Origin: an uncultured Chloroflexia bacterium
Lineage (GTDB): Bacteria > Chloroflexota > Limnocylindria > Limnocylindrales > CSP1-4
Direction: 5' to 3'
Length of the DNA stretch: 64,000 nucleotides
Assembly (NCBI GenBank): GCA_963707215.1
Contig: CAVPPB010000004.1
Location: 1 to 64,000, forward strand
Below the pieces are notes generated by a model. It made no database searches. It was not told the DNA's origin and was given only the letters and a program-made list of their open reading frames with translations. This document shows positions 17,556 through 29,071 of the stretch, piece after piece (the stretch's first letter is position 1; each line of letters opens with the position of its first letter). Position numbers and translations under genes: made by a program.

Positions 17556-19196
17556 GTGGCCGTACCGATCGCCCTCTACGCGCTCGCCGTCCTGGCCCGC
17601 GCGGCCATGGGGGCCCACTTCCCCGAACCGGCCTACCCGGACGCCTTCTACTACACGGAGGTCGCCCGGTCACTGGCGGGCGGCCAGGGGTTCAGCGTCG
17701 ACTTCATCTGGATCTTCGCCGAGGTCGGGGGGGCCATCCCGGCCGACCCGGTCCTCCCGATCCCCTCGAACGCCCACTGGATGCCGCTGCCCTCGATCCT
17801 GGCGGCGCCGTTCATCGCCCTCCTGGGCGAGGGCGGGCCGGGGCAGCTGGCCAGCTACCTGCTGGTCGGCGCGCTCGCGGCACCGCTGACCTGGGCCATC
17901 GCCCGCGACCTCGGCGCTCCGTCGTGGCTGGCGATCGGCGCCGGGGCCATCGTGGCCGTCCCGGGGATGCTCGCCCCGTTCATGGCCCAGCCGGACAACT
18001 TCGGGCTCTACCAGCCGCTGGTCACCGCAGCGCTCTGGTTCGGCGCGCGAGGGCTGCGCGGAGAGCGCCGCCTCTTCGCTCTCGCCGGCCTGCTGGCCGG
18101 ATTCGCGACCCTGGCTCGCAACGACGGGGTCCTGGTCCTCGCCGCGCTCGGCCTGGTCTGGCTGGACGATCGGTTCCTGGCCTGGCGGTCCCGCGGCGGG
18201 CGTATGCCGGCGATCCCGCTCTCGACGGCCATCGCCTGCGTCGCCCTCTTCGTGCTGGTCATGGCGCCGTGGTGGCTCCGCCAGCTGGCCGTCTTCGGGT
18301 CCATCTCGCCGTCGGCCGGCAGCGGCAAGGTGCTGTTCATCCGCGACATCGGGGAGTGGAACAGCATCTCGACCCCGGCTGACCTCGACTGGCTCCTGGG
18401 CCAGGGGCTGGGACCGCTGGTCGCCAGCCGGATCGGCGGCTTCGTGGCCGCCGTCACGATCTTCGTGGTCCTCGGCACCTCGGTCGTGCTGGCGCCGTTC
18501 GCCATCGTCGGCTCCTGGGCCCGGCGCCGGGATCCTCGGCTGGCCCCGTTCTTCGTCTTCACGGCGCTCCTGTTCGCGGCCAACGCCCTGGCCTTCGCCG
18601 TCCACGTTCCTGGCGGGACGTTCATCCACTCGGCCTGTGCGCTGGTCCCATACACCGCGATCCTGGGCCTGGAGGGGATCGTCGTCGCGGTCCGCTGGGT
18701 CGCCCGGCACCGGCCGACCTGGGACGCCGACCGGGCGGGTCGCCTCTTCGCGGGGGCAGCCGTCGTCTTCGTGGTCGGCGTCTCGATCCCGGCCACCCTG
18801 AGCGTCCACGCGACCTGGGACTCGCGGCGGGAGACCTTCCGAGACGTCGCGGCGGTGCTCGAGGCCGCGGGGTCGCCGCGCTCGGACCGCGTGATGTCCA
18901 TCGACGCCGGCGGGACGAAGTACCACAGCGGCCACGGCGGCGTGGTGACGGTCAACGACCCGATCGAGACGATCGAGGAGGTCGCCCGCGCCTACGACAT
19001 CCGCTGGCTCTCGCTCGATCGACGCGACGCCGTGCCGGCGATGGCCCCGGTCCTGGACCGCGACGAGCGGCCCGACTGGATGGGCCCGGCGGTCTGGACG
19101 CAGACCGAGACCGACGGGCGGACGCTGGCCGGCCTCTACCCCGTCTGCCTGGAGCCCGGCGATGCCCGCTGTTCGACCGAGGTGGCGACGCGATGA
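17556..19196 (+). CDS. GT39/ArnT-like GT-C glycosyltransferase
   Basis: First TM followed by YPDAFYYTEVARSLAGG, HWMPLPS, LATLARNDG and PWWLRQL, plus a C-terminal soluble domain. The true start is GTG 17556, inside track ORF 16620..19196. Confidence 0.8.
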   Translation: MAVPIALYALAVLARAAMGAHFPEPAYPDAFYYTEVARSLAGGQGFSVDFIWIFAEVGGAIPADPVLPIPSNAHWMPLPSILAAPFIALLGEGGPGQLASYLLVGALAAPLTWAIARDLGAPSWLAIGAGAIVAVPGMLAPFMAQPDNFGLYQPLVTAALWFGARGLRGERRLFALAGLLAGFATLARNDGVLVLAALGLVWLDDRFLAWRSRGGRMPAIPLSTAIACVALFVLVMAPWWLRQLAVFGSISPSAGSGKVLFIRDIGEWNSISTPADLDWLLGQGLGPLVASRIGGFVAAVTIFVVLGTSVVLAPFAIVGSWARRRDPRLAPFFVFTALLFAANALAFAVHVPGGTFIHSACALVPYTAILGLEGIVVAVRWVARHRPTWDADRAGRLFAGAAVVFVVGVSIPATLSVHATWDSRRETFRDVAAVLEAAGSPRSDRVMSIDAGGTKYHSGHGGVVTVNDPIETIEEVARAYDIRWLSLDRRDAVPAMAPVLDRDERPDWMGPAVWTQTETDGRTLAGLYPVCLEPGDARCSTEVATR

Positions 19197-20850
19197 TCGA
19201 CACGTCGACGGCCTGGCGCCCGGACCGCCGCGAGGCGTGGGCCTCAGCCGGGCTCGTCGCCCTCGTCGCCCTGGCGGCCGGGCTGGTCGCCGCCTCCGCC
19301 ATCGTCTTCCCCAAGCCCGAGGACACCGCCTACTACGTCGGCGTCGCCCGGAACATCCTCGAGGGGCGCGGCATCGTGTCCGACGCGATCTGGAGCTACG
19401 GGACGCCGCCGCTGGTCTTCCCGCGGCCGGCCTTCGAGGTCTGGCTGCCCCTGCCGAGCCTCCTGGCACTCGGGCCGATGTGGCTGTTCGGGACGACCTT
19501 CGCCGCGGCGCAGTGGGTCGGCCTCGCTGCGGGTGCCGTCATGGCCGTCCTCGGCTGGCGCCTGGCCGCCGACGTCGCCACCGAGCGGGCGATGCCGCCC
19601 GGGCGCGGGCGGACCCTCGCTCTCGGAGCGGGCCTCACGACCGCCGTCTACCTGCCGGTGGCCCTCTCGGCGGCGCTGCCCGATTCGACGCTGGTCTTCG
19701 GGGCGATCGTCCTGGCGGCCGGCCTGCTCATGACCCGGGTCCTGCGCGATCCTCGGGACGCCCGCCTGACCGATCCCCGGACCTGGGCGATCGGCCTGCT
19801 CCTTGGCCTCGGCGCCCTGACCCGCAACGAGGCGATCTGGCTGGCCCTCGCCTGGGCCGTCCTCGTCGTGCTCGATCGCACGCTCGACCGCGCGGCCAGG
19901 GTCCGCCTCGTCGGCCTCGCGGCGGCCGTCTCGATCGCGGTCTACGTCCCCTGGGCCGTCCGCGACTGGCTGGCCTTCGGCAGCGCCTTCCCGGGGCAGG
20001 CGCTCGACAACGCCCTCTCGATCCGGGGCACGGATATCTTCGCCTGGTCGGACCCGCCGACCCTGGCCCGTTACCTGGACCAGGGTATCGCGACCCTCCT
20101 GGGCCTCCGGGTCACCGGGACCCTCCACAACCTGCTCAACGTCCTGCTGTTCCTCGGCATCCCGGTCTCGATCGTCGGGTTGCTGGGGCTGCCATGGGCG
20201 GCCCGGCTGCGGTCCCTGCGACCCCTCCTTGTCTACGCCGTCCTCACCTTCCTGGTCGCCAGCCTGGTCTTCCCGGTCGCCACGACCTGGGGGACGTTCC
20301 TCCACGCGGCCGGGGCGATCCACGTCCTGCTGGTCGTCAGCGCCCTCCTCGCGCTCGACGCCCTCATCGTCCGGATCGGCGTGCGTCCGCGGCTGGACCC
20401 GGCCCGTGGCCTGGCTGGGGGCGACGTTCGCGATCGTCGGCTCCATCCTCTTCTCGCTCGCCCTGCTGCCGAGCTTCGCGGCCGGGTCGCGCCAGACGGA
20501 GGCTGGCCTACGAGGCGCTGGGACAGGTCCTGGCCGAAGCCGGCATCCCGCTCACGCCCGGCGAGCCGGTCATCACCGACTTCCCGATCTGGCTGGCCGA
20601 GACGTGGCGCCAGGAGGCGCTGGCCCTGCCCGACGAGTCGCCCGAGAGCGTCCTCGACCTGGCGGCCGCCTTCCCCGGCACCCGCACGCTGGTCCTGTTC
20701 GGGGGCCTCCACGAGCGCTGGCCCGACACCCTGGACGCTGGCGAGCCCGGCAGCGAGTGCTTCGACGAGGTCGCGCTGCCTGTCCCCGCGGATCCGGACG
20801 CGGCCGAGGCCCTCGACGGGGTCCGGGCCTGGCGGATCGGTTGCCCATGA
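19193..20850 (+). CDS. GT39/ArnT-like GT-C glycosyltransferase, paralogue of the upstream gene, frameshifted
   Basis: PEDTAYYVGVARNILEG, VWLPLPSLL, LTRNEA, PWAVRDW and WGTFLHA parallel the upstream protein; breaks near 20385 and 20500; ends WRIGCP*. Confidence 0.78.
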
Positions 20851-20921
20851 CCGGCGAGCGTTCGCCCGGGACGGAGCGACGGCAGGGTGGGGGCGAGACC
20901 GCCCCGTATACTCGGCCGCGG

Positions 20922-21908
20922 ATGGACGCTGCGCGCGCCGTGACCGGAACGGGGGACGACCACTTCGACGGCCTGCACGCCGAGGCCAAGGCGGCGGTAT
21001 CCCGCGCCGCCAACGATCTGCGGGCGGTCCGTGACCGATATCGGACGGCCTACCTCGACGAGCTGACGCGTGGCACGCCGCGCGCGACGACGCGGACCGG
21101 GCCGACCGGCCGACCAGCCGACCTGGGCCTCCACCAGCAGGAGCTCTCGAAGCTCGACCTGGCCGGGCAGACGCTCGAGCAGACCTGGCTCTTCCTCGAG
21201 CGCGGCGATCGATCGCTGCTCGCCGACGCCGCCGACCCGGAGCTGCCGGCGGACGCCCGGATGCGGATCGTCGAGGCCCGCGAGGCCGAGCGCAACCGGA
21301 TCGCCCAGGAGGTCCACGACGGACCGGCCCAGGCCCTCAGCAATGCGATCTTCCAGGTCGAGTACATCGACCGGGTGCTGGACCAGGACCTCCGCCTGGC
21401 TCGGGCCGAGCTGCGCTACCTCCGCGACCTCCTTCGCCGCGAGCTCGGTGGCGTCCGCAGCTTCATCAGCCAGCTCCGGCCACCGGTCCTCGACTCGCTG
21501 GGCCTCGACGGGGCGCTGGCCGACACCGTCGAGAACCTGACCGCCCTGACCGGGCTCCCGATCGAGCTCCGCCTGGAGGCGCCGATCGACGCACTCGACC
21601 CGGCCCAGCAGACGGTCGTCCTGCGGGTCGTCCAGGAGGCGCTCCAGAACGTCCGCAAGCACGCCGCGCCGACGACCGTGCGCGTGGCGACCCGGCTCGA
21701 GGCCGACACATGGGTCGCGGAGGTCATCGACGACGGACGAGGATTCGACCCCGAGGCGGTGGCCGCCCAGCGCGGCCGCAGCTTCGGGCTCCAGTTCATG
21801 CGCGAGCGATCGGACCTGATCGGGGCCCGTTTGGAAGTACGATCGAGACCGGATGGCGGTACCGTCGTCCGGCTGGCCATCCCCCCTGGAGGTGAGAAGG
21901 ACCGATGA
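20922..21908 (+). CDS. Soluble DegS-like sensor histidine kinase (HisKA_3 + HATPase_c)
   Basis: EAERNRIAQEVHDGPAQALSN H-box, LRPPVLDSLGL, QEALQNVRKHA N-box, DDGRGFD G1, FGLQFMRER, GGTVV; no TM segment. Alternative start ATG 20847. Confidence 0.9.
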   Translation: MDAARAVTGTGDDHFDGLHAEAKAAVSRAANDLRAVRDRYRTAYLDELTRGTPRATTRTGPTGRPADLGLHQQELSKLDLAGQTLEQTWLFLERGDRSLLADAADPELPADARMRIVEAREAERNRIAQEVHDGPAQALSNAIFQVEYIDRVLDQDLRLARAELRYLRDLLRRELGGVRSFISQLRPPVLDSLGLDGALADTVENLTALTGLPIELRLEAPIDALDPAQQTVVLRVVQEALQNVRKHAAPTTVRVATRLEADTWVAEVIDDGRGFDPEAVAAQRGRSFGLQFMRERSDLIGARLEVRSRPDGGTVVRLAIPPGGEKDR

Positions 21909-22648
21909 GCGAGACCTACACCGGCCCGGACCGGCGCCGCGGCGGCCCGGATCGGCGGAACCCGGAGGAGCGGACCCGGATCCTCCTCGTCGACGACCAC
22001 GCCCTGTTCCGGGTCGGGATGCGGAACATCCTGGAGCGCGAGGACGACTTCGACATCGTCGGCGAGGCGGACGGCAGCCGGACGGCGATCGACGCCGCCA
22101 CCGAGCTGAGCCCCGACATCATCCTCATGGACCTCTCGCTGCCCGCTCCGGGCGGGATCGAGACGACCCAGCGGATCAAGCGCGAGCTGCCGTCCTGCGG
22201 GATCGTCATCCTGGCGACGGAGGAGGGCGAGGAGGAGCTGTTCGAGGCCATCAAGGCCGGCGCGGCCGCCTTCATCCTCAAGGACATCGGCCCGGACGAC
22301 CTGGTCACCATCATCCGCCGGGTGAAGGTCGGCGAGTTCCTCATCAACGACAAGGTCTTCGCCCGCCCCTCGGTGGCCACCAGGGTCCTCAAGGAGTTCC
22401 GCGAGCTGGCCGTCTACGGCACCGAGTCGACCCAGATCTTCGCCCCGCTCTCACCCCGTGAGATCGAGATCCTCGACAACATCGCCCAGGGCATGACCAA
22501 CAAGCAGGTCGCCTACGAGCTCGGCATCTCCGAGCAGACGGTCAAGAACCACATGAGCTCGATCCTCCGCAAGCTGGCCGTCAACGACCGGACCCAGGCC
22601 GTCGTCTACGCGATGCGCCAGGGCTGGATCAAGATGCCCGAGGATTGA
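21905..22648 (+). CDS. NarL/DegU-family response regulator
   Basis: ILLVDDHALFR, ILMDLSLP (phospho-Asp), FILK, and LuxR HTH LSPREIEIL...GMTNKQVAYELGISEQTVKNHMSSILRKL. Confidence 0.93.
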   Translation: MSETYTGPDRRRGGPDRRNPEERTRILLVDDHALFRVGMRNILEREDDFDIVGEADGSRTAIDAATELSPDIILMDLSLPAPGGIETTQRIKRELPSCGIVILATEEGEEELFEAIKAGAAAFILKDIGPDDLVTIIRRVKVGEFLINDKVFARPSVATRVLKEFRELAVYGTESTQIFAPLSPREIEILDNIAQGMTNKQVAYELGISEQTVKNHMSSILRKLAVNDRTQAVVYAMRQGWIKMPED

Positions 22649-23802
22649 TGACCGACGCGTCCTCGCTCCCGGCACCCACCTCCCTGCCCGGCCTGGCCCA
22701 GCGGCTGGAGGCCGAGCTCGCAGCGCTCGACTCCGAGCTCTCGGAGATCGACCTGCTCGTCGCCCAGGCCAGGACCGAGTCCGGCCGCCACGAGGCGCGG
22801 CGAGCCCAGGCTGCCGACAAGCTCGCCGGCAAGGGCGGCAAGGGTGAGGCCAAGGATCTCGTCGAGGCCTACTCCCAGCTGGCCATCCTGACCCGTCGAG
22901 CCGCGGTCATGGAGGCCCAGGTCGAGGTCCTGGAGGGCAAGCGCAAGGTCCTGTCCCGCTACCGTGACTCGCTGGCCGGCTACGCGGCCGCCATCGGGCC
23001 GCTCGCCGCCGGCGGCGTCCCCGTCGGCGGTGAGGATGGCGCGGGCGGTCTCGACCCGGACGCACCCCCGGCCGTCTCCCGGGCCATCCTCCGGGCCCAG
23101 GAGGATCTCCGCCGCGAGATCGCCCGGGCGATGCACGACGGCCCGGCCCAGAGCCTCACCAACATCGTCCTGCAGGCCCAGATCGTGGACCGCCTGCTCG
23201 ATCGCGACCCGGCCTGGGCCCGTGGCGAGCTGGCCCAGCTCGGCTCGATGGTGGAGCAGACGCTCGAGGCCACCAAGACCTTCATCTTCGACGTCCGCCC
23301 CATGGTCCTCGACGACCTCGGCCTCGTGCCGACGCTGCGCCGGATGACCCGCGAGCGGAGCCAGCGCGGTCCGATCCCGGTCGCCTTCGAGACGGTCGGC
23401 GTCGATCGGCGGCTGCCTGCCGACACCGAGAGCGGTCTCTACCGGATCGTCGACCAGGTCCTGGGCGCCTACCTGGCGGCTGGCCCCGACCGGATCGAGG
23501 TCAAGCTCGACTGGGGTGACGAATCGCTGGCGCTGGACATCGCCGCCAGGCGGATCGAGGTCGAGCCGGTCGAGGACGAGGAAACGCCGCCACCACCGGC
23601 CGAGGACCTGCCGCCGGCCCTGGCCGAGATGATCGAGGACCGCCGCCGGGCCGCTGCGCCCGTCCAGCCCGAGCCGATCGAGCTGCCGGACGCGACCTGG
23701 CGCGACGTGTCCGCCCGGGCGGCCTCGATCGACGCGACGGCCGAGCTGACCGACGGGGCGAGCCGGATCCGGATCGAGCTGGCCGTCCCGGCCGCCGACT
23801 GA
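22645..23802 (+). CDS. DegS-like coiled-coil + HisKA_3 protein with degenerate ATPase domain
   Basis: N-terminal coiled coil, RREIARAMHDGPAQSLTN H-box and VRPMVLDDLGL; the N-box position reads RIVDQVLGAY and no DxGxG motif is present. Confidence 0.8.
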   Translation: MMTDASSLPAPTSLPGLAQRLEAELAALDSELSEIDLLVAQARTESGRHEARRAQAADKLAGKGGKGEAKDLVEAYSQLAILTRRAAVMEAQVEVLEGKRKVLSRYRDSLAGYAAAIGPLAAGGVPVGGEDGAGGLDPDAPPAVSRAILRAQEDLRREIARAMHDGPAQSLTNIVLQAQIVDRLLDRDPAWARGELAQLGSMVEQTLEATKTFIFDVRPMVLDDLGLVPTLRRMTRERSQRGPIPVAFETVGVDRRLPADTESGLYRIVDQVLGAYLAAGPDRIEVKLDWGDESLALDIAARRIEVEPVEDEETPPPPAEDLPPALAEMIEDRRRAAAPVQPEPIELPDATWRDVSARAASIDATAELTDGASRIRIELAVPAAD

Positions 23803-23811
23803 GGATCCCTC

Positions 23812-23973
23812 GTGAGCCTTGCGCACGGCTTCGGCCAGGGCATCGTCGAGTACGGTCTGATCCTGGCCCTGGGCGCCCTCCTGGCGATCGCGGTCCTGGT
23901 GCTCTTCCCGGACGTCGTCGCGGAGGTCGTCCGCTGGGTCGGCGAGACGGTCGATGCGGCCACGGGAGCCTGA
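23812..23973 (+). CDS. Flp-family type IVb/c pilin-like protein (53 aa, below the ORF-track cutoff)
   Basis: Manual translation: VSLAHGFG|QGIVEYGLILALGALLAIAVLVLFPDVVAEVVRWVGETVDAATGA*, with G|xxxxEY Flp motif and RBS GAGGA. Confidence 0.8.
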   Translation: MSLAHGFGQGIVEYGLILALGALLAIAVLVLFPDVVAEVVRWVGETVDAATGA

Positions 23974-24048
23974 CGGGCGGCCGGGATCTGGCGGCCGGGC
24001 GATCGGCCGCTCGGCCCACCGTCGGCGACCGATGGTACGAAGGTGCTA

Positions 24049-24078
24049 TTCACCCGCCGGCTGACCCCCTCGTATCGT
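24049..24078 (+). promoter_or_regulatory. Putative sigma70 promoter of the pilin at 24128
   Basis: TTCACC-18 nt-TATCGT upstream of RBS GGAGG. Confidence 0.4.
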
Positions 24079-24127
24079 GATGTCGCCCAAGCTTGGGGCA
24101 GCAGCACTCATCGAGGGAGGTCGCCAC

Positions 24128-24298
24128 ATGGCGCTCATCCAGTCGCTCCTGGCCATGTTCAGCCAGGATGAAGAGGGCCAGGGGCTCGCCGAGTACGCCC
24201 TGATCCTCGCCCTCATCGCGATCGTCGCGATCCTCGCCCTCATCTTCCTGGGCGGCCAGATCAGCGGCATCCTCAGCAACGTCGGCAACTCGGTCTAG
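24128..24298 (+). CDS. flp: Flp pilin
   Basis: MALIQSLLAMFSQDEEG|QGLAEYALILALIAIVAILALIFLGGQISGILSNVGNSV; RBS GGAGG. Confidence 0.92.
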   Translation: MALIQSLLAMFSQDEEGQGLAEYALILALIAIVAILALIFLGGQISGILSNVGNSV

Positions 24299-24313
24299 CA
24301 CCGATCCGCTGAC

Positions 24314-24357
24314 ACGACGCCCCCCTGGGCTCCGGCCCGGGGGGCGTCGTTCGTTTC
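24314..24357 (+). terminator. Intrinsic terminator after pilin 24128
   Basis: Hairpin ACGACGCCCCCCTGGGC-TCCG-GCCCGGGGGGCGTCGT followed by TCGTTT. Confidence 0.75.
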
Positions 24358-24392
24358 CGGGGCGCCCGGGCACCATAGGGAGGTTAGGTAGG

Positions 24393-24421
24393 TTGACACC
24401 CGCGACGACGGCACCTATGGT
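24393..24421 (+). promoter_or_regulatory. Sigma70-type promoter of the pilin at 24489
   Basis: TTGACA (24393)-17 nt-TATGGT (24416). Confidence 0.7.
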
Positions 24422-24488
24422 CCGGGTCGCTCCCGACGCCGCACCCGGCTCGGGGGACTTCGACGGGGAAGGAGGTGAACCAGACACC

Positions 24489-24659
24489 ATGACGCTTCTC
24501 AACGCCATCATCTCGCTCTTCCAGTCCGACGAGGAGGGCCAGGGGCTCGCCGAGTACGCCCTGATCCTCGCCCTCATCGCGATCGTCGCGATCCTCGCCC
24601 TCATCTTCCTGGGCGGCCAGATCAGCGGCATCCTCAGCAACGTCGGCAACTCGGTCTAG
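24489..24659 (+). CDS. flp: Flp pilin (mature part identical to 24128..24298)
   Basis: MTLLNAIISLFQSDEEG|QGLAEYALIL...NSV; strong RBS AAGGAGGTG. Confidence 0.92.
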   Translation: MTLLNAIISLFQSDEEGQGLAEYALILALIAIVAILALIFLGGQISGILSNVGNSV

Positions 24660-24674
24660 CACCGATCCGCTGAC

Positions 24675-24718
24675 ACGACGCCCCCCTGGGCTCCGGCCCG
24701 GGGGGCGTCGTTCGTTTC
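24675..24718 (+). terminator. Intrinsic terminator after pilin 24489 (copy of 24314-24357)
   Basis: Same GC hairpin plus TCGTTT. Confidence 0.75.
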
Positions 24719-24782
24719 CGGGGCGCCCGGGCTCGGTGGCGCAGCCGCGCACCGACAGGACTCCCGGGCTACTCGAGGGCTA

Positions 24783-24812
24783 TTGACAGCCCCTCGCTGA
24801 CGTACCCACGAT
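24783..24812 (+). promoter_or_regulatory. Putative sigma70 promoter of the pilin at 24895
   Basis: TTGACA (24783)-18 nt-CACGAT. Confidence 0.5.
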
Positions 24813-24894
24813 GGCGGCGCCAGAGCCGGGGGACCGACCGTCCTCGGGTGTGCCTGCCGCCATCCGGCAGAGCCGGCAGAAGGGAGGTTGGTGG

Positions 24895-25107
24895 ATGCCA
24901 TCGCTGGACCGCATCGTCCTGGAGCTTCGTTCATTCATCCATCGTTTCCAGGTTCGATCGACCGAGGGCCAGGGTCTTGCCGAGTACGCGCTCATCCTTG
25001 CACTCATCGCCATGATCGCCATCGTCGCGTTGCTCTTCCTCGGCCAGATGATCAGCGGCGTCGTCTTCGATCACATCGGAGGCACGCTCGAGAGCAAGGT
25101 GAGCTGA
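24895..25107 (+). CDS. flp: Flp pilin (divergent)
   Basis: MPSLDRIVLELRSFIHRFQVRSTEG|QGLAEYALILALIAMIAIVALLFLGQMISGVVFDHIGGTLESKVS; RBS GGGAGG. Confidence 0.88.
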   Translation: MPSLDRIVLELRSFIHRFQVRSTEGQGLAEYALILALIAMIAIVALLFLGQMISGVVFDHIGGTLESKVS

Positions 25108-25353: not shown

Positions 25354-26259
25354 TTGAAGCGCTCGAATCGGCTGGTCATCCTGATCGGCATCTTCCTTGC
25401 CGTCGTCGCCTTCGTCGGCGTGTTCATCCTGCTCTCGAACGATGGCGGAGGCGGAGGCGGGGACAACCAAGGCAGTCGGACGACGACGCCCACCGTCTTC
25501 GCGGCGAAGGACATCCCCATCGGCACCCAGGTGACCGCGGACCTGCTCCGCGTCGAGGAGGAGTGGCCCAACGACCAGCGAGCCGCCGATGCCTACAGCA
25601 CGCCCTCGCTCGTCATCGGGCAGATCGCCCGCGTCCAGATCCTCAAGGACCAGCAGCTGACCGCCAGCGCGTTCGCGAGCACGGCCGGGCTGACGACGGT
25701 GACCTGCCCCGAGACCCTCCGCTGCATCGCCGTCCAGGTGGACCAGGTGACCGGCGTCGGGACTCTCATCCGGGCCGGCGACTATGTCGACGTGCTGGTC
25801 GGCTTCACCGGCGACAAGTTCCCGGTGGTCCAGATCAACCCGGATGACGACACGATCACCCCGGTCGCCGGGATCAGCGGCACGACCGTCAAGCTCCTGC
25901 TCCAGGGCCTCCAGGTCCAGGGCGTCCTGCTCCCGCCGCCGCCCGCAGAGGACGGGAACCAGGATCAGGCACAGGAAGGCGACGCGCCGACCAGCCTGAC
26001 CGGCCAGCAGGAGATCGTGATCCTGGGCGGGACCGCCCAGCAGGTCGAGGTCGTCAAGTTCGGCCAGATGGACGGGCAGATCAGCCTCGTCCTCCGCTCG
26101 ATCAAGGACTTCCAGGACCCCAACGACCCCACGATCCCGGTGACGCCGATCCCGGACGTCACGACCGGCGTCATCCTCAAGACCCTGGTCGACGACTACG
26201 GGGTCCTCGTGCCCGAGATCATCGAGCTCATCCTGCCCGAGGGCGCACCCGCCCCGTGA
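25354..26259 (+). CDS. cpaB: Flp pilus assembly protein CpaB/RcpC
   Basis: N-terminal TM, SAF domain (VFAAKDIPIGTQVTADLL), IAVQVDQVTGVGTLIRAGDYVDVL, ISLVLRS. Confidence 0.88.
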   Translation: MKRSNRLVILIGIFLAVVAFVGVFILLSNDGGGGGGDNQGSRTTTPTVFAAKDIPIGTQVTADLLRVEEEWPNDQRAADAYSTPSLVIGQIARVQILKDQQLTASAFASTAGLTTVTCPETLRCIAVQVDQVTGVGTLIRAGDYVDVLVGFTGDKFPVVQINPDDDTITPVAGISGTTVKLLLQGLQVQGVLLPPPPAEDGNQDQAQEGDAPTSLTGQQEIVILGGTAQQVEVVKFGQMDGQISLVLRSIKDFQDPNDPTIPVTPIPDVTTGVILKTLVDDYGVLVPEIIELILPEGAPAP

Positions 26260-26306: not shown

Positions 26307-26356
26307 CGCCGGGACAAGACCATCCCCCACACTTGGAGCGCATTCGCGACCCGCTG

Positions 26357-27613
26357 ATGACCGACCGGATCCGCGTCCTCATCGTCGACGACATCCCGGA
26401 GACGCGCGACCACCTCACGAAGCTCCTCGGCTTCGAGAGCGACATCGAGGTGGTCGGCGCCGCCGCATCGGGTGCCGAGGCGATCGAGCTCGCCGAGCGC
26501 GTCTCCCCCGACATCGTCCTGATGGACATCAACATGCCGGACATGGACGGGATCGCGACCACCGAGCAGCTCGTGACTCGCGTCCCCACGGCGGCCGTCA
26601 TCATGATGTCCGTCCAGGGTGAGGCCGACTACCTGCGCCGCTCGATGCTGGCCGGAGCTCGCGAGTTCCTGGTCAAGCCCTTCAGCTCCGACGAGCTGAC
26701 GGCGTCGATCCGCCAGGTCAGCTCCCGCGAGCGCGAGAAGCTGAGCCGGATGGCGGTCGCGGCCGCCCCGACCGGAGCGTCGCCCAACGGTCATGACGAC
26801 GGGCAGGGCGAGCCGGGCATGGTCATCGCCCTGTTCAGCCCCAAGGGCGGGGTCGGGCGGACGACGATCGCCGTGAACATGGCCGTCGCGGCTCACCAGG
26901 AGCTGGGGCGCGACGTCTGCGTCGTCGACGGCTCGCTGCAGTTCGGCGACGTCGGGGTCCTGCTCAACCTCAACCCGAAGAACAAGTCCATCGCCGACCT
27001 GGCGCCCGAGCTCGAGGCCGGTGAGGCGGATTCGCTGGACACCTTCGTCGTCACCCACTCGTCCGGTATCAAGGTCCTGCTGGCTCCGCCCTCGCCGGAG
27101 ATGGCCGAGCTGGTCAGCCCGGCCGGCCTGCGGCGGGCGATCGACGGCCTCCGGATGCGCCACGAGCTCGTCATCGTGGACTGCCCCTCGACGTTCAACG
27201 ATTCCACGCTGGCCGTCCTGGACGCGGCCGATCTCGTCCTGACGGTCCTGAGCCTCGAGATCACCAGCATCAAGAACATGCGCCTCTTCCTGGAGGTCGC
27301 TGACCAGCTGGGCTACGAGAAGGGCAGCATCCAGCTGGTCCTGAACCGGGCCGACTCGACCCTCGGCATCCGGGTCACCGACGTGGAGCACTCGATCGGC
27401 CGCAAGGTCGATCACACGATCGTCTCCGATGGCCGCAGCGTGGTCTACGCGCTCAACCGCGGCATCCCGTTCTACATCAGCAACCGGGAGGCCCAGGTCT
27501 CCCAGGACATCCTCCGGCTGGCCAAGGCGGTCGCCGGTCCGATCGAGCATCCGACGACGGGCAGGTCCGAGGAGCGGGCCGCCCAGAAGAAGTCCCTCTT
27601 CGCATGGCGATGA
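26357..27613 (+). CDS. cpaE: CpaE/TadZ-like receiver domain + ParA/MinD-type ATPase
   Basis: REC domain VLIVDD...VLMDINMPDMDG...FLVKPF; deviant Walker A SPKGGVGRTT; VIVDCP; LVLNR. Confidence 0.85.
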   Translation: MTDRIRVLIVDDIPETRDHLTKLLGFESDIEVVGAAASGAEAIELAERVSPDIVLMDINMPDMDGIATTEQLVTRVPTAAVIMMSVQGEADYLRRSMLAGAREFLVKPFSSDELTASIRQVSSREREKLSRMAVAAAPTGASPNGHDDGQGEPGMVIALFSPKGGVGRTTIAVNMAVAAHQELGRDVCVVDGSLQFGDVGVLLNLNPKNKSIADLAPELEAGEADSLDTFVVTHSSGIKVLLAPPSPEMAELVSPAGLRRAIDGLRMRHELVIVDCPSTFNDSTLAVLDAADLVLTVLSLEITSIKNMRLFLEVADQLGYEKGSIQLVLNRADSTLGIRVTDVEHSIGRKVDHTIVSDGRSVVYALNRGIPFYISNREAQVSQDILRLAKAVAGPIEHPTTGRSEERAAQKKSLFAWR

Positions 27614-27648
27614 GCGAGGTCCCCTCGGGGGCGGAAGGGGAGTAGGCG

Positions 27649-29071
27649 ATGTCCCTCCTGAAGCGGATCGAGAGCGCCCGACCGGGCGCGGAACCCCAGG
27701 CGACGCCGGGAGCGCCGGCGCCGGCCCCGGGCAGCCCCAACCTGCCGGCGGCACCGGCCGGCACCCCGCCCCCGGCCGCCCCGCGGCTCATGACGAGCGC
27801 GCCGGTCCGGGAGTCGTTCCGGGACGTCAAGTTCCGGATCCAGAGCCGGGTCATCCAGGACCTGGACCCCAAGCTCGACCTCTCCAACCAGGTCGAGGTC
27901 CGCCGCCAGATCGAGGAGATCTTCGGCAAGGTCATCGACGAAGAGGGCCTGGCCCTGACCCGCGCCGAGCGGGTCCGGATGCTCGAGCAGATCACCGACG
28001 AGATCATCGGTCTCGGCCCGCTCGAGCCGCTCCTCCGCGACGAGACCATCACCGAGGTCATGGTCAACGGGCCCGCGCCAGGTCTACATCGAGCGCGCCG
28101 GCAAGCTGGAGCTGACGAACGTCGTCTTCCAGAACGACGACCATGTCATGCGGATCATCGATCGGATCATCGCCCCGATCGGCCGCCGCGTCGACGAGTC
28201 GCAGCCCGATGGTCGACGCCCGCCTGACCGACGGCTCGCGCGTCAACGCGATCATCCCGCCGCTCTCGCTCGTGGGACCGGTCATCACGATCCGGAAGTT
28301 CGCCGCCTCCCCGTTCACCGTCGACGACCTGATCCGCTTCGGGACGGCGACGCCGGAGATGTTCGACTTCCTCAAGGCCTGCGTCGAGGCCCGCCTGAAC
28401 ATCTTCGTCTCCGGCGGCACCGGCTCGGGCAAGACGACGACGCTCAACGTCCTCTCGTCGTTCATCCCCAACGACGAGCGGATCGTGACCATCGAGGACG
28501 CCGCCGAGCTCCAGCTCCGCCAGGAGCACGTGGTCACCCTCGAGTCGCGGCCGCCCGAACATCGAGGGCAAGGGCGCGATCCCCATCCGCGAGCTGGTCC
28601 GCAACTCCCTGCGGATGCGGCCCGACCGGATCATCGTCGGGGAGTGCCGCTCGGGCGAGGCGCTGGACATGCTCCAGGCCATGAACACCGGCCACGACGG
28701 CTCGCTGTCCACCGGCCACGCCAACAGCCCGCGCGACATGCTCTCGCGCCTGGAGACGATGGTCCTGATGGCCGGCGTCGACCTGCCGCTGCGGGCCATC
28801 CGCGAGCAGATCGCCTCGGCGGTCGACCTCATCGTCCACCAGAGCCGCCTCAAGGACGGCACCCGGAAGATCACCAACATCACCGAGGTCCAGGGCATGG
28901 AAGGCGACGTCATCGTCATGCAGGACGTGTTCGTGTTCGAGCAGACGGGCGATCGTCGAGGGCAAGATCCAGGGTCGCCTGAAGCCGACCGGCATCCGGC
29001 CGAAGTTCGTCGAGAAGTTCGAGGTCATGGGCATCCACCTGCCGCCGGGCCTCTTCGGCTTCGACTTCTAG
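27649..29071 (+). CDS. tadA: CpaF/TadA pilus ATPase, frameshifted
   Basis: [92 protein letters not shown]; about 4 indels. Confidence 0.9.

Follow-up and report, generated by a model that had tools for sequence, protein, structure and literature searches.

A conserved arginine-rich tail on a NarL-type regulator heading a Chloroflexota Flp/Tad pilus cluster: a possible c-di-GMP input

The window, that is, the whole stretch of DNA analysed, comprises 64,000 nt of contig CAVPPB010000004.1 from an uncultured Chloroflexota bacterium of the class Limnocylindria. In it, a kinase, a response regulator and a pseudokinase form a translationally coupled, DegS/DegU-like two-component module that heads a Flp/Tad pilus cluster. 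The genes and features of the locus are the following:

20847..21908, + strand: soluble DegS-like histidine kinase (Pfam HisKA_3, E 7e-14; HATPase_c, E 1.2e-13)
21905..22648, + strand: NarL/DegU-type response regulator of 247 aa (Pfam REC and GerE)
21905..21976, + strand: N-terminal tail of the regulator, residues 1-24, predicted to be disordered
21917..21958, + strand: compact tandem motif YTGPDRR-RGGPDRR, residues 5-18 of the regulator
21980..22318, + strand: receiver domain, residues 26-138 of the regulator (Pfam PF00072, E 1.6e-24)
22445..22612, + strand: GerE/LuxR-type helix-turn-helix, residues 181-236 of the regulator (Pfam PF00196, E 5.9e-23)
22648..23802, + strand: DegS-like pseudokinase of 384 aa (Pfam HisKA_3 only)
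23812..25107, + strand: four tandem small Flp-type pilin genes (Pfam Flp_Fap in three of four, below the gathering score)
25354..26259, + strand: CpaB/RcpC pilus assembly protein (Pfam RcpC, E 7e-12, and SAF)
26333..27613, + strand: receiver-domain CpaE/TadZ-type ParA/MinD ATPase (Pfam Response_reg, E 7e-29, and AAA_31)
27646..29068, + strand: cpaF/tadA secretion ATPase (tblastn with an intact orthologue)

The likely ATG of the kinase (20847) overlaps the stop codon of a membrane-protein gene upstream, the ATG of the regulator (21905) shares bases with the TGA that ends the kinase ORF at 21908 (ATGA), and the ATG of the pseudokinase overlaps the regulator stop (TGATG). A GGAGG lies 12 nt 5' of the regulator ATG. 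The N-terminus of the pseudokinase is a coiled coil, and its HisKA_3 domain retains the histidine of HDGPAQ; Pfam finds no recognisable ATP-binding domain in the protein. NCBIfam kinase models match it only as far as position 384 of 457, and its BLAST alignment with the kinase is limited to the DHp region. The preliminary description of this DNA had placed the regulator directly upstream of the pilin genes; the pseudokinase gene (22648-23802) in fact intervenes. The pilin ORFs lie at 23812-23973, 24077-24298, 24393-24659 and 24811-25107, their true starts being uncertain, and cpaF/tadA appears by tblastn as five segments in frames 1, 2, 3, 1 and 2. This arrangement recurs in related loci, with a kinase orthologue upstream of the regulator in all 76 loci with enough sequence, a pseudokinase orthologue downstream of it in 73/73, Flp matches downstream in 59/59, and the CpaB/RcpC, receiver-CpaE and cpaF/tadA orthologues each in 53/53.

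The translation of the + strand ORF 21905..22648 begins MSETYTGPDRRRGGPDRRNPEERTRILLVDDH. Its receiver looks intact, because D30, D31, D76, T105 and K126 are all present. The receiver pocket, the C-terminal GerE domain and the adjoining HisKA_3-type kinase gene place the protein among NarL/FixJ (LuxR-type) regulators; NCBIfam returns NarL-like matches, every one under the equivalog cut-off. Its closest solved relatives are VraR, NarL, DevR and DesR, with alignments that begin at about residue 21-26, and the tail is absent from these solved homologues. Pfam finds no PilZ domain in the regulator, which has a single Trp, W243, within GWIKM close to its C-terminus.

Positions 21917-21958 encode YTGPDRRRGGPDRR, which corresponds to residues 5-18 (Y5 to R18) and packs six arginines into 14 residues together with Gly-Gly-Pro. 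AlphaFold2 models residues 1-17 without secondary structure and at a pLDDT below 50. No further in-frame ATG, GTG or TTG follows 21905 before the beta1 strand LLVDDH is reached, and the motif must therefore be translated. A true start downstream of it, which had been raised as a reason to doubt the tail, is ruled out, and the start codon lies upstream of the motif. Coordinates, translation and the Pfam receiver match all agree with the earlier statement that a tandem motif precedes an intact receiver.

The tail is sharply conserved. In all 120 of the best protein clusters [YF]xG[P/S][DE]RRRGGPDRR is kept amid varying flanking residues, which bears out the conservation in orthologues that the preliminary description had proposed to check; among the nearest clusters, the motif lies 2-6 codons from the start. 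Across 137 distinct DNA versions, the G, P and R positions use every four-fold codon, and such free synonymous codon use means that selection acts on the peptide and not on DNA or RNA; an RNA or DNA element as the cause of the conservation is ruled out by the same freely varying sites. Judged by these alignments, the core [YF]xGP[DE]RR-RGGPDRR is under strong purifying selection.

A degenerate DNA pattern for the motif matched 36 of 201 genomes of the class Limnocylindria, and its reversed control matched none. The tail is confined to one family of the class (35 of 60 sampled genomes vs 0 of 140 in sister families), in which the kinase-regulator-pseudokinase triad always lies upstream of a Flp/Tad pilus cluster. 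When 596 Gb of genomes were scanned with the degenerate pattern, at least 120 loci were found; among the 120 matches listed, 107 are intact regulators, three are regulators whose frame is lost or whose contig ends, and the other 10, from GC-rich Actinomycetota, Myxococcota and others, are arginine-rich frames that no receiver follows. Within the genome itself, the regulator is the one recognisable gene that carries the tandem. Among its six-frame ORFs of at least 80 aa, the expression [YFW]xGP[DE][RK]R has four matches and a tandem expression seven; those outside the regulator look like Arg/Pro-rich off-frame translations, and the one inspected (C3:740573) lies 5' of where a Mur-ligase-like gene really starts. 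Judging by these matches, the tail is no module shared among many proteins.

Conservation within the family is not complete, since 18 of the best 80 loci have variant tails, with the second unit altered or lost, and about nine of the 80 have lost the second DRR (e.g. PGPGGRS). Synteny is complete in 6/6 variant-tail genomes checked, and the genomes that lost the second DRR retain 9-11 GGDEF matches and the full pilus cluster, so that in the relatives checked neither c-di-GMP enzymes nor cluster genes go missing together with it. The tail has the character of an add-on, because the triad persists without it in sister families and the cluster stays complete in lineages whose tail has decayed.

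To our knowledge, the Cle-type arginine-rich tail is the only known linear c-di-GMP-binding peptide; it takes up an intercalated c-di-GMP dimer 2:1 with a sub-micromolar Kd. Its tandem [Y/F]XGP[D/E][R/K]R (PMC5677366) bears out the [Y/F]xGP[D/E]RR of the preliminary description, which also agrees with PMC7382256. The likeness of the regulator tail is closest in the first unit, where YTGPDRRR shares 7/8 residues with YVGPDRRR of CleD, and extends to the second unit, where GPDRR fits the family consensus GP[D/E][R/K]R. In both cases, a short, linear, disordered, arginine-rich peptide is carried by a receiver-domain protein, and the free CleD peptide is disordered by NMR (PMC7382256). In that peptide the Asp before RR, both arginines and the Gly of the second GP are important (Table 1, PMC7382256), and their counterparts (G, P, D/E, R, R) are invariant in the regulator tail in 120/120 clusters. 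In a way reminiscent of the Cle element [R/K]RxxD, an acidic residue comes after the second RR (RRNPE in the regulator), although its position is not fixed: 24 of 63 loci have it at +3, and all 63 have it at either +3 or +4. A phmmer search of residues 1-30 against 177,635 distinct sequences of solved structures gave a sole match, the CleD peptide itself (6sft_A), though at E 0.79.

The differences are also substantial. The two units abut in the regulator tail, five residues closer than in natural Cle tails: the second RR stands eight residues after the first Asp, whereas this distance is 14 in CleD and a constant 13 across 95 versions of natural tails, and the Cle-type spacing, with DRR and [R/K]RxxD 11 residues apart, is not found. 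Single-residue deletions in this intervening loop of the CleD peptide raise Kd about 2- to 7-fold (PMC7382256). The second aromatic of CleD (Y163) is replaced by Arg (RGGPDRR); Y163A raises the Kd of the CleD peptide about 25-fold (PMC7382256), and natural Brevundimonas homologues, with 95 distinct tail versions, often carry Pro or Ala in place of the second aromatic. Helix alpha4 of the regulator (residues 109-118, EEELFEAIKA) is without Arg and so offers no counterpart of R113 of CleD. The tail is N-terminal on a REC-HTH regulator of the Chloroflexota, whereas Cle tails are C-terminal on single-domain CheY-like proteins found almost only in Alphaproteobacteria. An HMM of 96 natural Cle tails gave the regulator 9.2 bits (E = 2), which ranks it 16th among the 43,105 six-frame ORFs of the genome, in a test that is weak in both directions because the model is dominated by one Brevundimonas paralogue. 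As this score is not significant, membership in the Cle tails is not supported by sequence. What stands of the proposed Cle-like tandem is the first heptad and the second GPDRR; spacing, second aromatic, alpha4 arginine and profile score depart from it.

The count of GGDEF genes that had been suggested gives about 10-11 matches in the genome, plus three EAL matches. GGDEF genes occur in 6/6 genomes checked, with 7-12 matches in the five relatives (three of them with a decayed tail), and their presence consequently discriminates nothing. PilZ domains, with their motifs RxxxR and [D/N]xSxxG, were not detected in the genome, which is 85% complete, and were found in 10 of 62 genomes of the tail-bearing family.

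On the likeness of the two units to CleD, binding of c-di-GMP by the regulator tail appears plausible, if somewhat short of probable. In such a scheme, the kinase would phosphorylate D76 of the regulator, the pseudokinase would serve as a phosphatase or phosphate sink, and the phosphorylated regulator would dimerise and control the flp/tad promoters, while the tail would provide a second input by binding c-di-GMP. Each G-P-[D/E]-R-R unit would contact guanine edges through its acidic residue and both arginines, the part that D154, R155 and R156 play in the CleD peptide. Either one intercalated c-di-GMP dimer would be enclosed by the two abutting units of a single chain, or two regulator chains would share one between their tails; in both arrangements the c-di-GMP level would bear on dimerisation or DNA binding, and hence on pilus expression. 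The invariant acidic residues within the arginine cluster would suit base-specific recognition of guanine better than plain binding of DNA or a polyanion. The scarcity of PilZ domains beside GGDEF and EAL genes, the add-on character of the tail and the frequent Pro or Ala at the second aromatic in Brevundimonas count in favour of this reading. By analogy with the CleD data, tails without the second DRR should not bind c-di-GMP on their own, and it counts against the reading that the genomes with such tails keep their GGDEF genes and the full cluster. It is a more doubtful proposition that the abutting 14-residue tandem represents a minimal linear c-di-GMP-binding peptide, independent of Cle or far diverged from it, which would make this NarL-type regulator a one-chain coincidence detector of kinase and c-di-GMP signals for the Tad pilus genes of a family in which PilZ receptors are mostly lacking.

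In many proteins a short, conserved, disordered tail serves as a linear interaction motif, and the tail could instead be a docking or regulatory peptide that tunes phosphotransfer or activation through a protein partner (the cognate kinase, the pseudokinase, the receiver-CpaE ATPase or RNA polymerase) without binding a nucleotide. The regulator is always flanked by kinase (76/76 loci) and pseudokinase (73/73), and the Cle-profile score of the tail is not significant. We nevertheless regard docking as unlikely, since lineages with a decayed tail retain the kinase, the pseudokinase and every cluster gene, and sister families have the triad without a tail; the core partnerships can thus do without it. 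Nor would docking explain why the first heptad is nearly identical to that of CleD. The six arginines in 14 residues and the Gly-Gly-Pro of a disordered segment on a DNA-binding protein would suit an arginine-rich DNA- or RNA-binding arm, AT-hook- or RGG-like, that raises promoter affinity through minor-groove or backbone contacts. Such an arm seems quite unlikely given the acidic residue before each RR (D/E at residue 9 and D16, invariant in 120/120 clusters), which is unusual for backbone binders, and the placing of the tail at the terminus far from the GerE domain. The tail also lacks GRP, the core of the AT-hook.

The same Asp-Arg-Arg chemistry that favours c-di-GMP might serve another anionic small molecule, such as a different cyclic dinucleotide, (p)ppGpp, GTP or polyphosphate, and the changed spacing and absent aromatic could reflect a different ligand geometry. 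The probability of this is low in our estimation, as nothing positive points to any ligand other than c-di-GMP, and the CleD peptide is reported to be highly specific for c-di-GMP (PMC7382256). A tail without specific function, with a Cle likeness arising by coincidence from GC-rich coding, is hardly credible. The string GP[DE]RR does occur 274 times in the six-frame ORFs of at least 80 aa of the genome and is common in off-frame translations, but the motif is invariant in 120/120 clusters despite free synonymous change, and in 110 of the 120 pattern matches listed it stands at the N-terminus of the same orthologue.

If the tail does bind c-di-GMP, the linear c-di-GMP peptide would extend beyond the CheY-like motor regulators of Alphaproteobacteria to a transcription factor, and to one from a distant, uncultured phylum. 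The motif would then work in a shorter, spacer-less form, which is relevant to the design of c-di-GMP-sequestering peptides, and the regulator would be a first receptor for a clade rich in GGDEF genes and poor in PilZ domains. It would further offer a simple model for joining phosphorylation and a second messenger on one regulator that controls adhesive pili. If there is no binding, a pilus regulator still carries a linear motif that is sharply conserved and specific to its lineage, and the partner of this motif is worth finding.

The preliminary description knew of no Cle-type motif on a NarL-type regulator, and our literature search agrees, as no paper was found that puts such a motif on a regulator of this type or describes the tail. 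LuxR/NarL-type regulators that bind c-di-GMP through other sites are already known, with VpsT and DevR named in the review PMC12564702. VpsT of Vibrio cholerae resembles the present regulator in joining REC to a LuxR-type HTH. Its c-di-GMP site is formed by W[F/L/M][T/S]R at the dimer interface of its receiver-like domain. The present regulator lacks this motif, and VpsT lacks the arginine tail. Both the oligomerisation of VpsT and the transcription of genes for surface attachment are under c-di-GMP control (PMC12564702). DevR (DosR) of Mycobacterium smegmatis also belongs to the NarL family, and 3c3w is among the closest solved relatives of our regulator (E 1e-28). DevR is reported to bind c-di-GMP, with binding assigned to its C-terminal domain, and to join it with phosphorylation by its kinase (PMC12564702). 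It differs from our regulator in having no N-terminal tail, and the alignment begins at query residue 25. The architecture of the module also resembles that of two further systems. DegS-DegU of Bacillus subtilis pairs a soluble HisKA_3 kinase with a NarL-type regulator of surface behaviour, and PprAB of Pseudomonas aeruginosa is a two-component regulator beside a Flp/Tad cluster. The present module shares with them the pairing of a HisKA_3 kinase with a NarL-type regulator and the position beside a Tad pilus locus, and it differs from both, as they are generally described, in its arginine tail and its paired pseudokinase.

The regulator, a NarL/DegU-type response regulator, begins with an arginine-rich tail whose motif, YTGPDRR-RGGPDRR at 21917-21958, corresponds exactly in translation to residues Y5-R18. 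The genes concerned are as follows.

From ATG 20847, + strand: soluble HisKA_3 + HATPase_c kinase; its start overlaps the previous stop
21905..22648, + strand: regulator, 247 aa, N-terminus MSETYTGPDRRRGGPDRRNPEERTRILLVDDH
From ATG 22648 to 23802, + strand: third gene, product of 384 aa; its start overlaps the regulator stop
Downstream of the third gene, + strand: four small Flp-type pilin genes, then cpaB, receiver-cpaE and cpaF

Pfam matches regulator residues 26-138 to a receiver domain (E 1.6e-24) and residues 181-236 to a GerE/LuxR helix-turn-helix (E 5.9e-23), leaving residues 1-25 without a match. NarL-like NCBIfam matches are all sub-threshold. The nearest solved proteins, VraR, NarL, DevR and DesR, align only from residue ~21-26, so none of them has the tail. 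The receiver following the motif had been described as intact, and it does keep the five key residues (D30, D31, D76, T105 and K126), so it looks phosphorylatable. The second acidic-pocket Asp is replaced in the tail-bearing orthologues of protein clusters P0064, P0102 and P0115 and DNA loci L019, L044, L109 and L120 (forms LLVDHH, LLVDSK, LLVDNH, IVDGH and IVDNH), a hint that phosphorylation chemistry may have changed in them while the tail was kept.

The regulator ATG at 21905 shares bases with the stop codon TGA that ends the kinase ORF (an ATGA overlap), and GGAGG lies 12 nt 5' of it. There is no in-frame ATG, GTG or TTG between this codon and the beta1 strand, and in all 107 intact-frame regulator loci among the DNA-pattern matches listed, the nearest upstream start codon lies 2-6 codons ahead of the motif aromatic. 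A true start downstream of the motif, which the preliminary description had allowed for, is therefore ruled out by the start codons, and the motif is translated.

Translational coupling joins a run of genes in which the regulator comes second. The third protein keeps a HisKA_3 domain and the phospho-acceptor histidine of HDGPAQ, while Pfam finds no HATPase_c match in it. Only its DHp region aligns with the kinase, its match to kinase models stops at position 384 of 457, and, compared with the kinase, it has other residues at the Asn-box and DxGxG-box positions. From these features it is read as a DegS-like pseudokinase. The pilin genes had been placed directly downstream of the regulator; the pseudokinase gene stands between. 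Wherever enough sequence was available, the kinase lay upstream of the regulator (76/76 loci) and the pseudokinase (73/73), Flp pilin (59/59) and CpaB, REC-CpaE and CpaF (each 53/53) lay downstream. The six genomes with variant tails that were inspected likewise keep the arrangement complete. What stands at the head of the Tad cluster is a module of DegS/DegU type to which a pseudokinase has been added.

Within the cluster, the CpaE/TadZ-type ATPase (26333-27613) includes a complete receiver domain (E 7e-29), a possible second phosphorylation target. The cpaF/tadA gene (27646-29068) falls into five frame segments (frames 1, 2, 3, 1, 2) that each share 82-94% identity with an intact orthologue, and so contains four frameshifts in 1.4 kb, which seem more likely to be errors of long-read assembly than signs of a decayed gene. 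The genome assembly comprises 5 contigs and 3.26 Mb. The gene before the kinase, which encodes a membrane protein (19162-20850), appears to change frame near 20400: ORF 19193..21034 looks genuine at the start and ORF 19162..20850 at the end. This too may be an assembly frameshift.

Conservation of the motif in orthologues, which the preliminary description had proposed as a check, is borne out. In a search of 5.8 billion proteins, [YF]xG[P/S][DE]RRRGGPDRR was present in 120/120 best clusters (63-97% identical to the regulator overall, all but two at ≥80%), and the residues flanking it on both sides vary freely. At each G, P and R position of the motif, the 137 distinct DNA versions between them use all the four-fold codons, which rules out an RNA or DNA element behind the conservation; judging from this codon use, selection acts on the tail peptide. 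Among representatives clustered at 50% identity the motif is confined to the nearest relatives, and homologues at or below ~60% identity begin a few residues before beta1. In an AlphaFold2 model (136 sequences, mean pLDDT 82.9), residues 1-17 have pLDDT <50 and lack secondary structure; the tail is thus predicted to be disordered.

Source names given for the proteins and loci put the regulator gene in Chloroflexota, class Limnocylindria. A degenerate DNA pattern for GP[DE]RRRGGPDRR, scanned over one genome per species, matched at least 120 loci. Among the 120 matches listed, 107 were the intact regulator, 3 were the regulator with its frame lost or the contig ending, and the remaining 10 fell in GC-rich genomes from other phyla, where the frame is rich in arginine and is not followed by a receiver. 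Frames with three consecutive GGPDRR(R) repeats in Actinoplanes (L003) and Frankia (L028), unrelated to the regulator, represent either real low-complexity proteins or off-frame translation. A slightly looser pattern matched 36 of 201 genomes sampled from the class, every one from the same family as the window (35 of 60 genomes apart from the window's own), and 0 of 140 in four sister families; the reversed pattern gave no match across the 201. A regulator orthologue occurs in 58 of 62 own-family genomes, and those missed by the exact pattern have variant tails: GG[S/Q]DRR, TMPDRR or SAPDRR, GGPEKR, RRRPGPGGRS in one lineage where the second DRR is gone, and RPERRRSGGQRDED in another. The best 80 loci comprise 62 with the full motif and 18 with a variant, the first half being more constant than the second.

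Eight genomes from two sister families (L245-L252) also contain the triad of kinase, regulator and pseudokinase. Their regulators, 55-60% identical, lack the tail and have LADAS, LADPS or LADGS in place of LVDDH, and their pseudokinases are 35-38% identical. The fetched DNA around these triads, up to ~5 kb downstream where the contig allowed, gave no Flp or Cpa match. Tail and pilus link are therefore both features of one family; as a single evolutionary event, they permit no causal reading.

The window's genome (85% complete) has 11 GGDEF matches, the count that had been suggested as a further check, with 3 EAL matches and no PilZ match. GGDEF matches number 7-12 in five relatives, three of them with decayed tails, so their presence neither supports nor tests the c-di-GMP idea. 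PilZ was found in only 10/62 own-family genomes (7/37 of high quality). Most organisms of the family make c-di-GMP without its commonest receptor, which leaves room for unrecognised ones.

The kinase would presumably phosphorylate D76, with the pseudokinase as phosphatase or sink, and the regulator would control the flp/tad promoters, the tail being an accessory input. The leading reading, a tentative one, is that the candidate tail binds c-di-GMP. Each G-P-[D/E]-R-R unit would offer an acidic residue and two arginines, those that CleD, a Cle protein, uses on guanine edges. Two abutting units of one chain could clasp a pseudo-symmetric intercalated c-di-GMP dimer; alternatively, each chain of a regulator dimer could contribute one unit. 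VpsT reportedly uses c-di-GMP through dimer-interface binding. The invariant acidic residues within the arginine cluster appear to fit base recognition better than backbone binding, and they make a DNA- or RNA-binding arm improbable. Binding of another anionic ligand, a reading with no positive evidence for any such ligand, is comparably improbable. A docking peptide for a protein partner is unlikely, if less so, as the core partners are kept even in genomes lacking the tail. That the tail has no function is scarcely credible given its invariance despite free synonymous change. Several features weigh against c-di-GMP binding itself: the shortened spacer, the missing second aromatic and alpha4 arginine, a Cle-tail profile score short of significance, and the loss of the second DRR in lineages that kept everything else.

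The general idea of a c-di-GMP-binding LuxR/NarL-type regulator is not new, as VpsT and DevR (via its C-terminal domain) are known examples (reviewed in PMC12564702). The preliminary description knew of no such motif on a NarL-type regulator, and our literature search, with most subscription journals outside it, likewise found no published description of a spacer-less, Cle-like linear motif at the N-terminus of a LuxR/NarL-type regulator in Chloroflexota. The tail is a candidate c-di-GMP receptor.

Cle proteins are CheY-like, with a 28-residue C-terminal extension (ARR) that has a tandem [Y/F]XGP[D/E][R/K]R, in agreement with the Cle motif of the preliminary description, and a conserved helix alpha4 Arg that contributes to binding; the extension was found in 302 proteins, of which 294 are alphaproteobacterial, and no protein is described there with an HTH domain (PMC5677366). 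For the CleD peptide, unfolded when free, an NMR complex with an intercalated c-di-GMP dimer is reported, in which D154, R155 and R156 contact the guanines Gua1 and Gua3, Y163 stacks on Gua4, and R169 and D172 contact Gua2 and Gua4. The substitution K168R strengthens binding, a turn requires G165, and single deletions among the 11 residues between the DRR and [R/K]RxxD motifs raise Kd ~2- to 7-fold (PMC7382256). Natural variation was read from Brevundimonas terrae (G001), a genome reached through a chance pattern match and encoding four receiver+ARR Cle-like proteins (L207, L213, L217, L218). Among 95 distinct tail versions from 120 homologues of one of these, Pro or Ala often replaces the second aromatic, and Glu, Val or Gln often the second Pro; the distance from first Asp to second RR is a constant 13. 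The second unit of L217 is stretched (YGPPMGEKGRR), so natural Cle-like tails tolerate some layout change.

A profile of 96 natural Cle-like tails gives the regulator 9.2 bits (E = 2; a weak test, dominated by one paralogue), rank 16 among the 43,105 six-frame ORFs that the window's genome yields. Against 177,635 solved-structure sequences, residues 1-30 match nothing but the CleD peptide 6sft_A, and that match, with E 0.79, is non-significant. The profile gives no support, and we therefore do not place the tail in the Cle ARR family. The tail differs from Cle tails in lying at the opposite end of the receiver, in a distance of 8 rather than 13 from first Asp to second RR (the two units abut), in having Arg in place of the second aromatic, and in the absence of Arg from helix alpha4 (residues 109-118). 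It resembles them in YTGPDRRR (YVGPDRRR in CleD), in a second GPDRR closer to the family consensus than the GPRKR of CleD itself, in having an acidic residue beyond the second RR, at either +3 or +4 without a fixed position (63/63 loci), and in its predicted disorder. The tail is strongly selected, lineage-specific, arginine-rich, predicted to be disordered and half Cle-like, and it may work like the Cle ARR.
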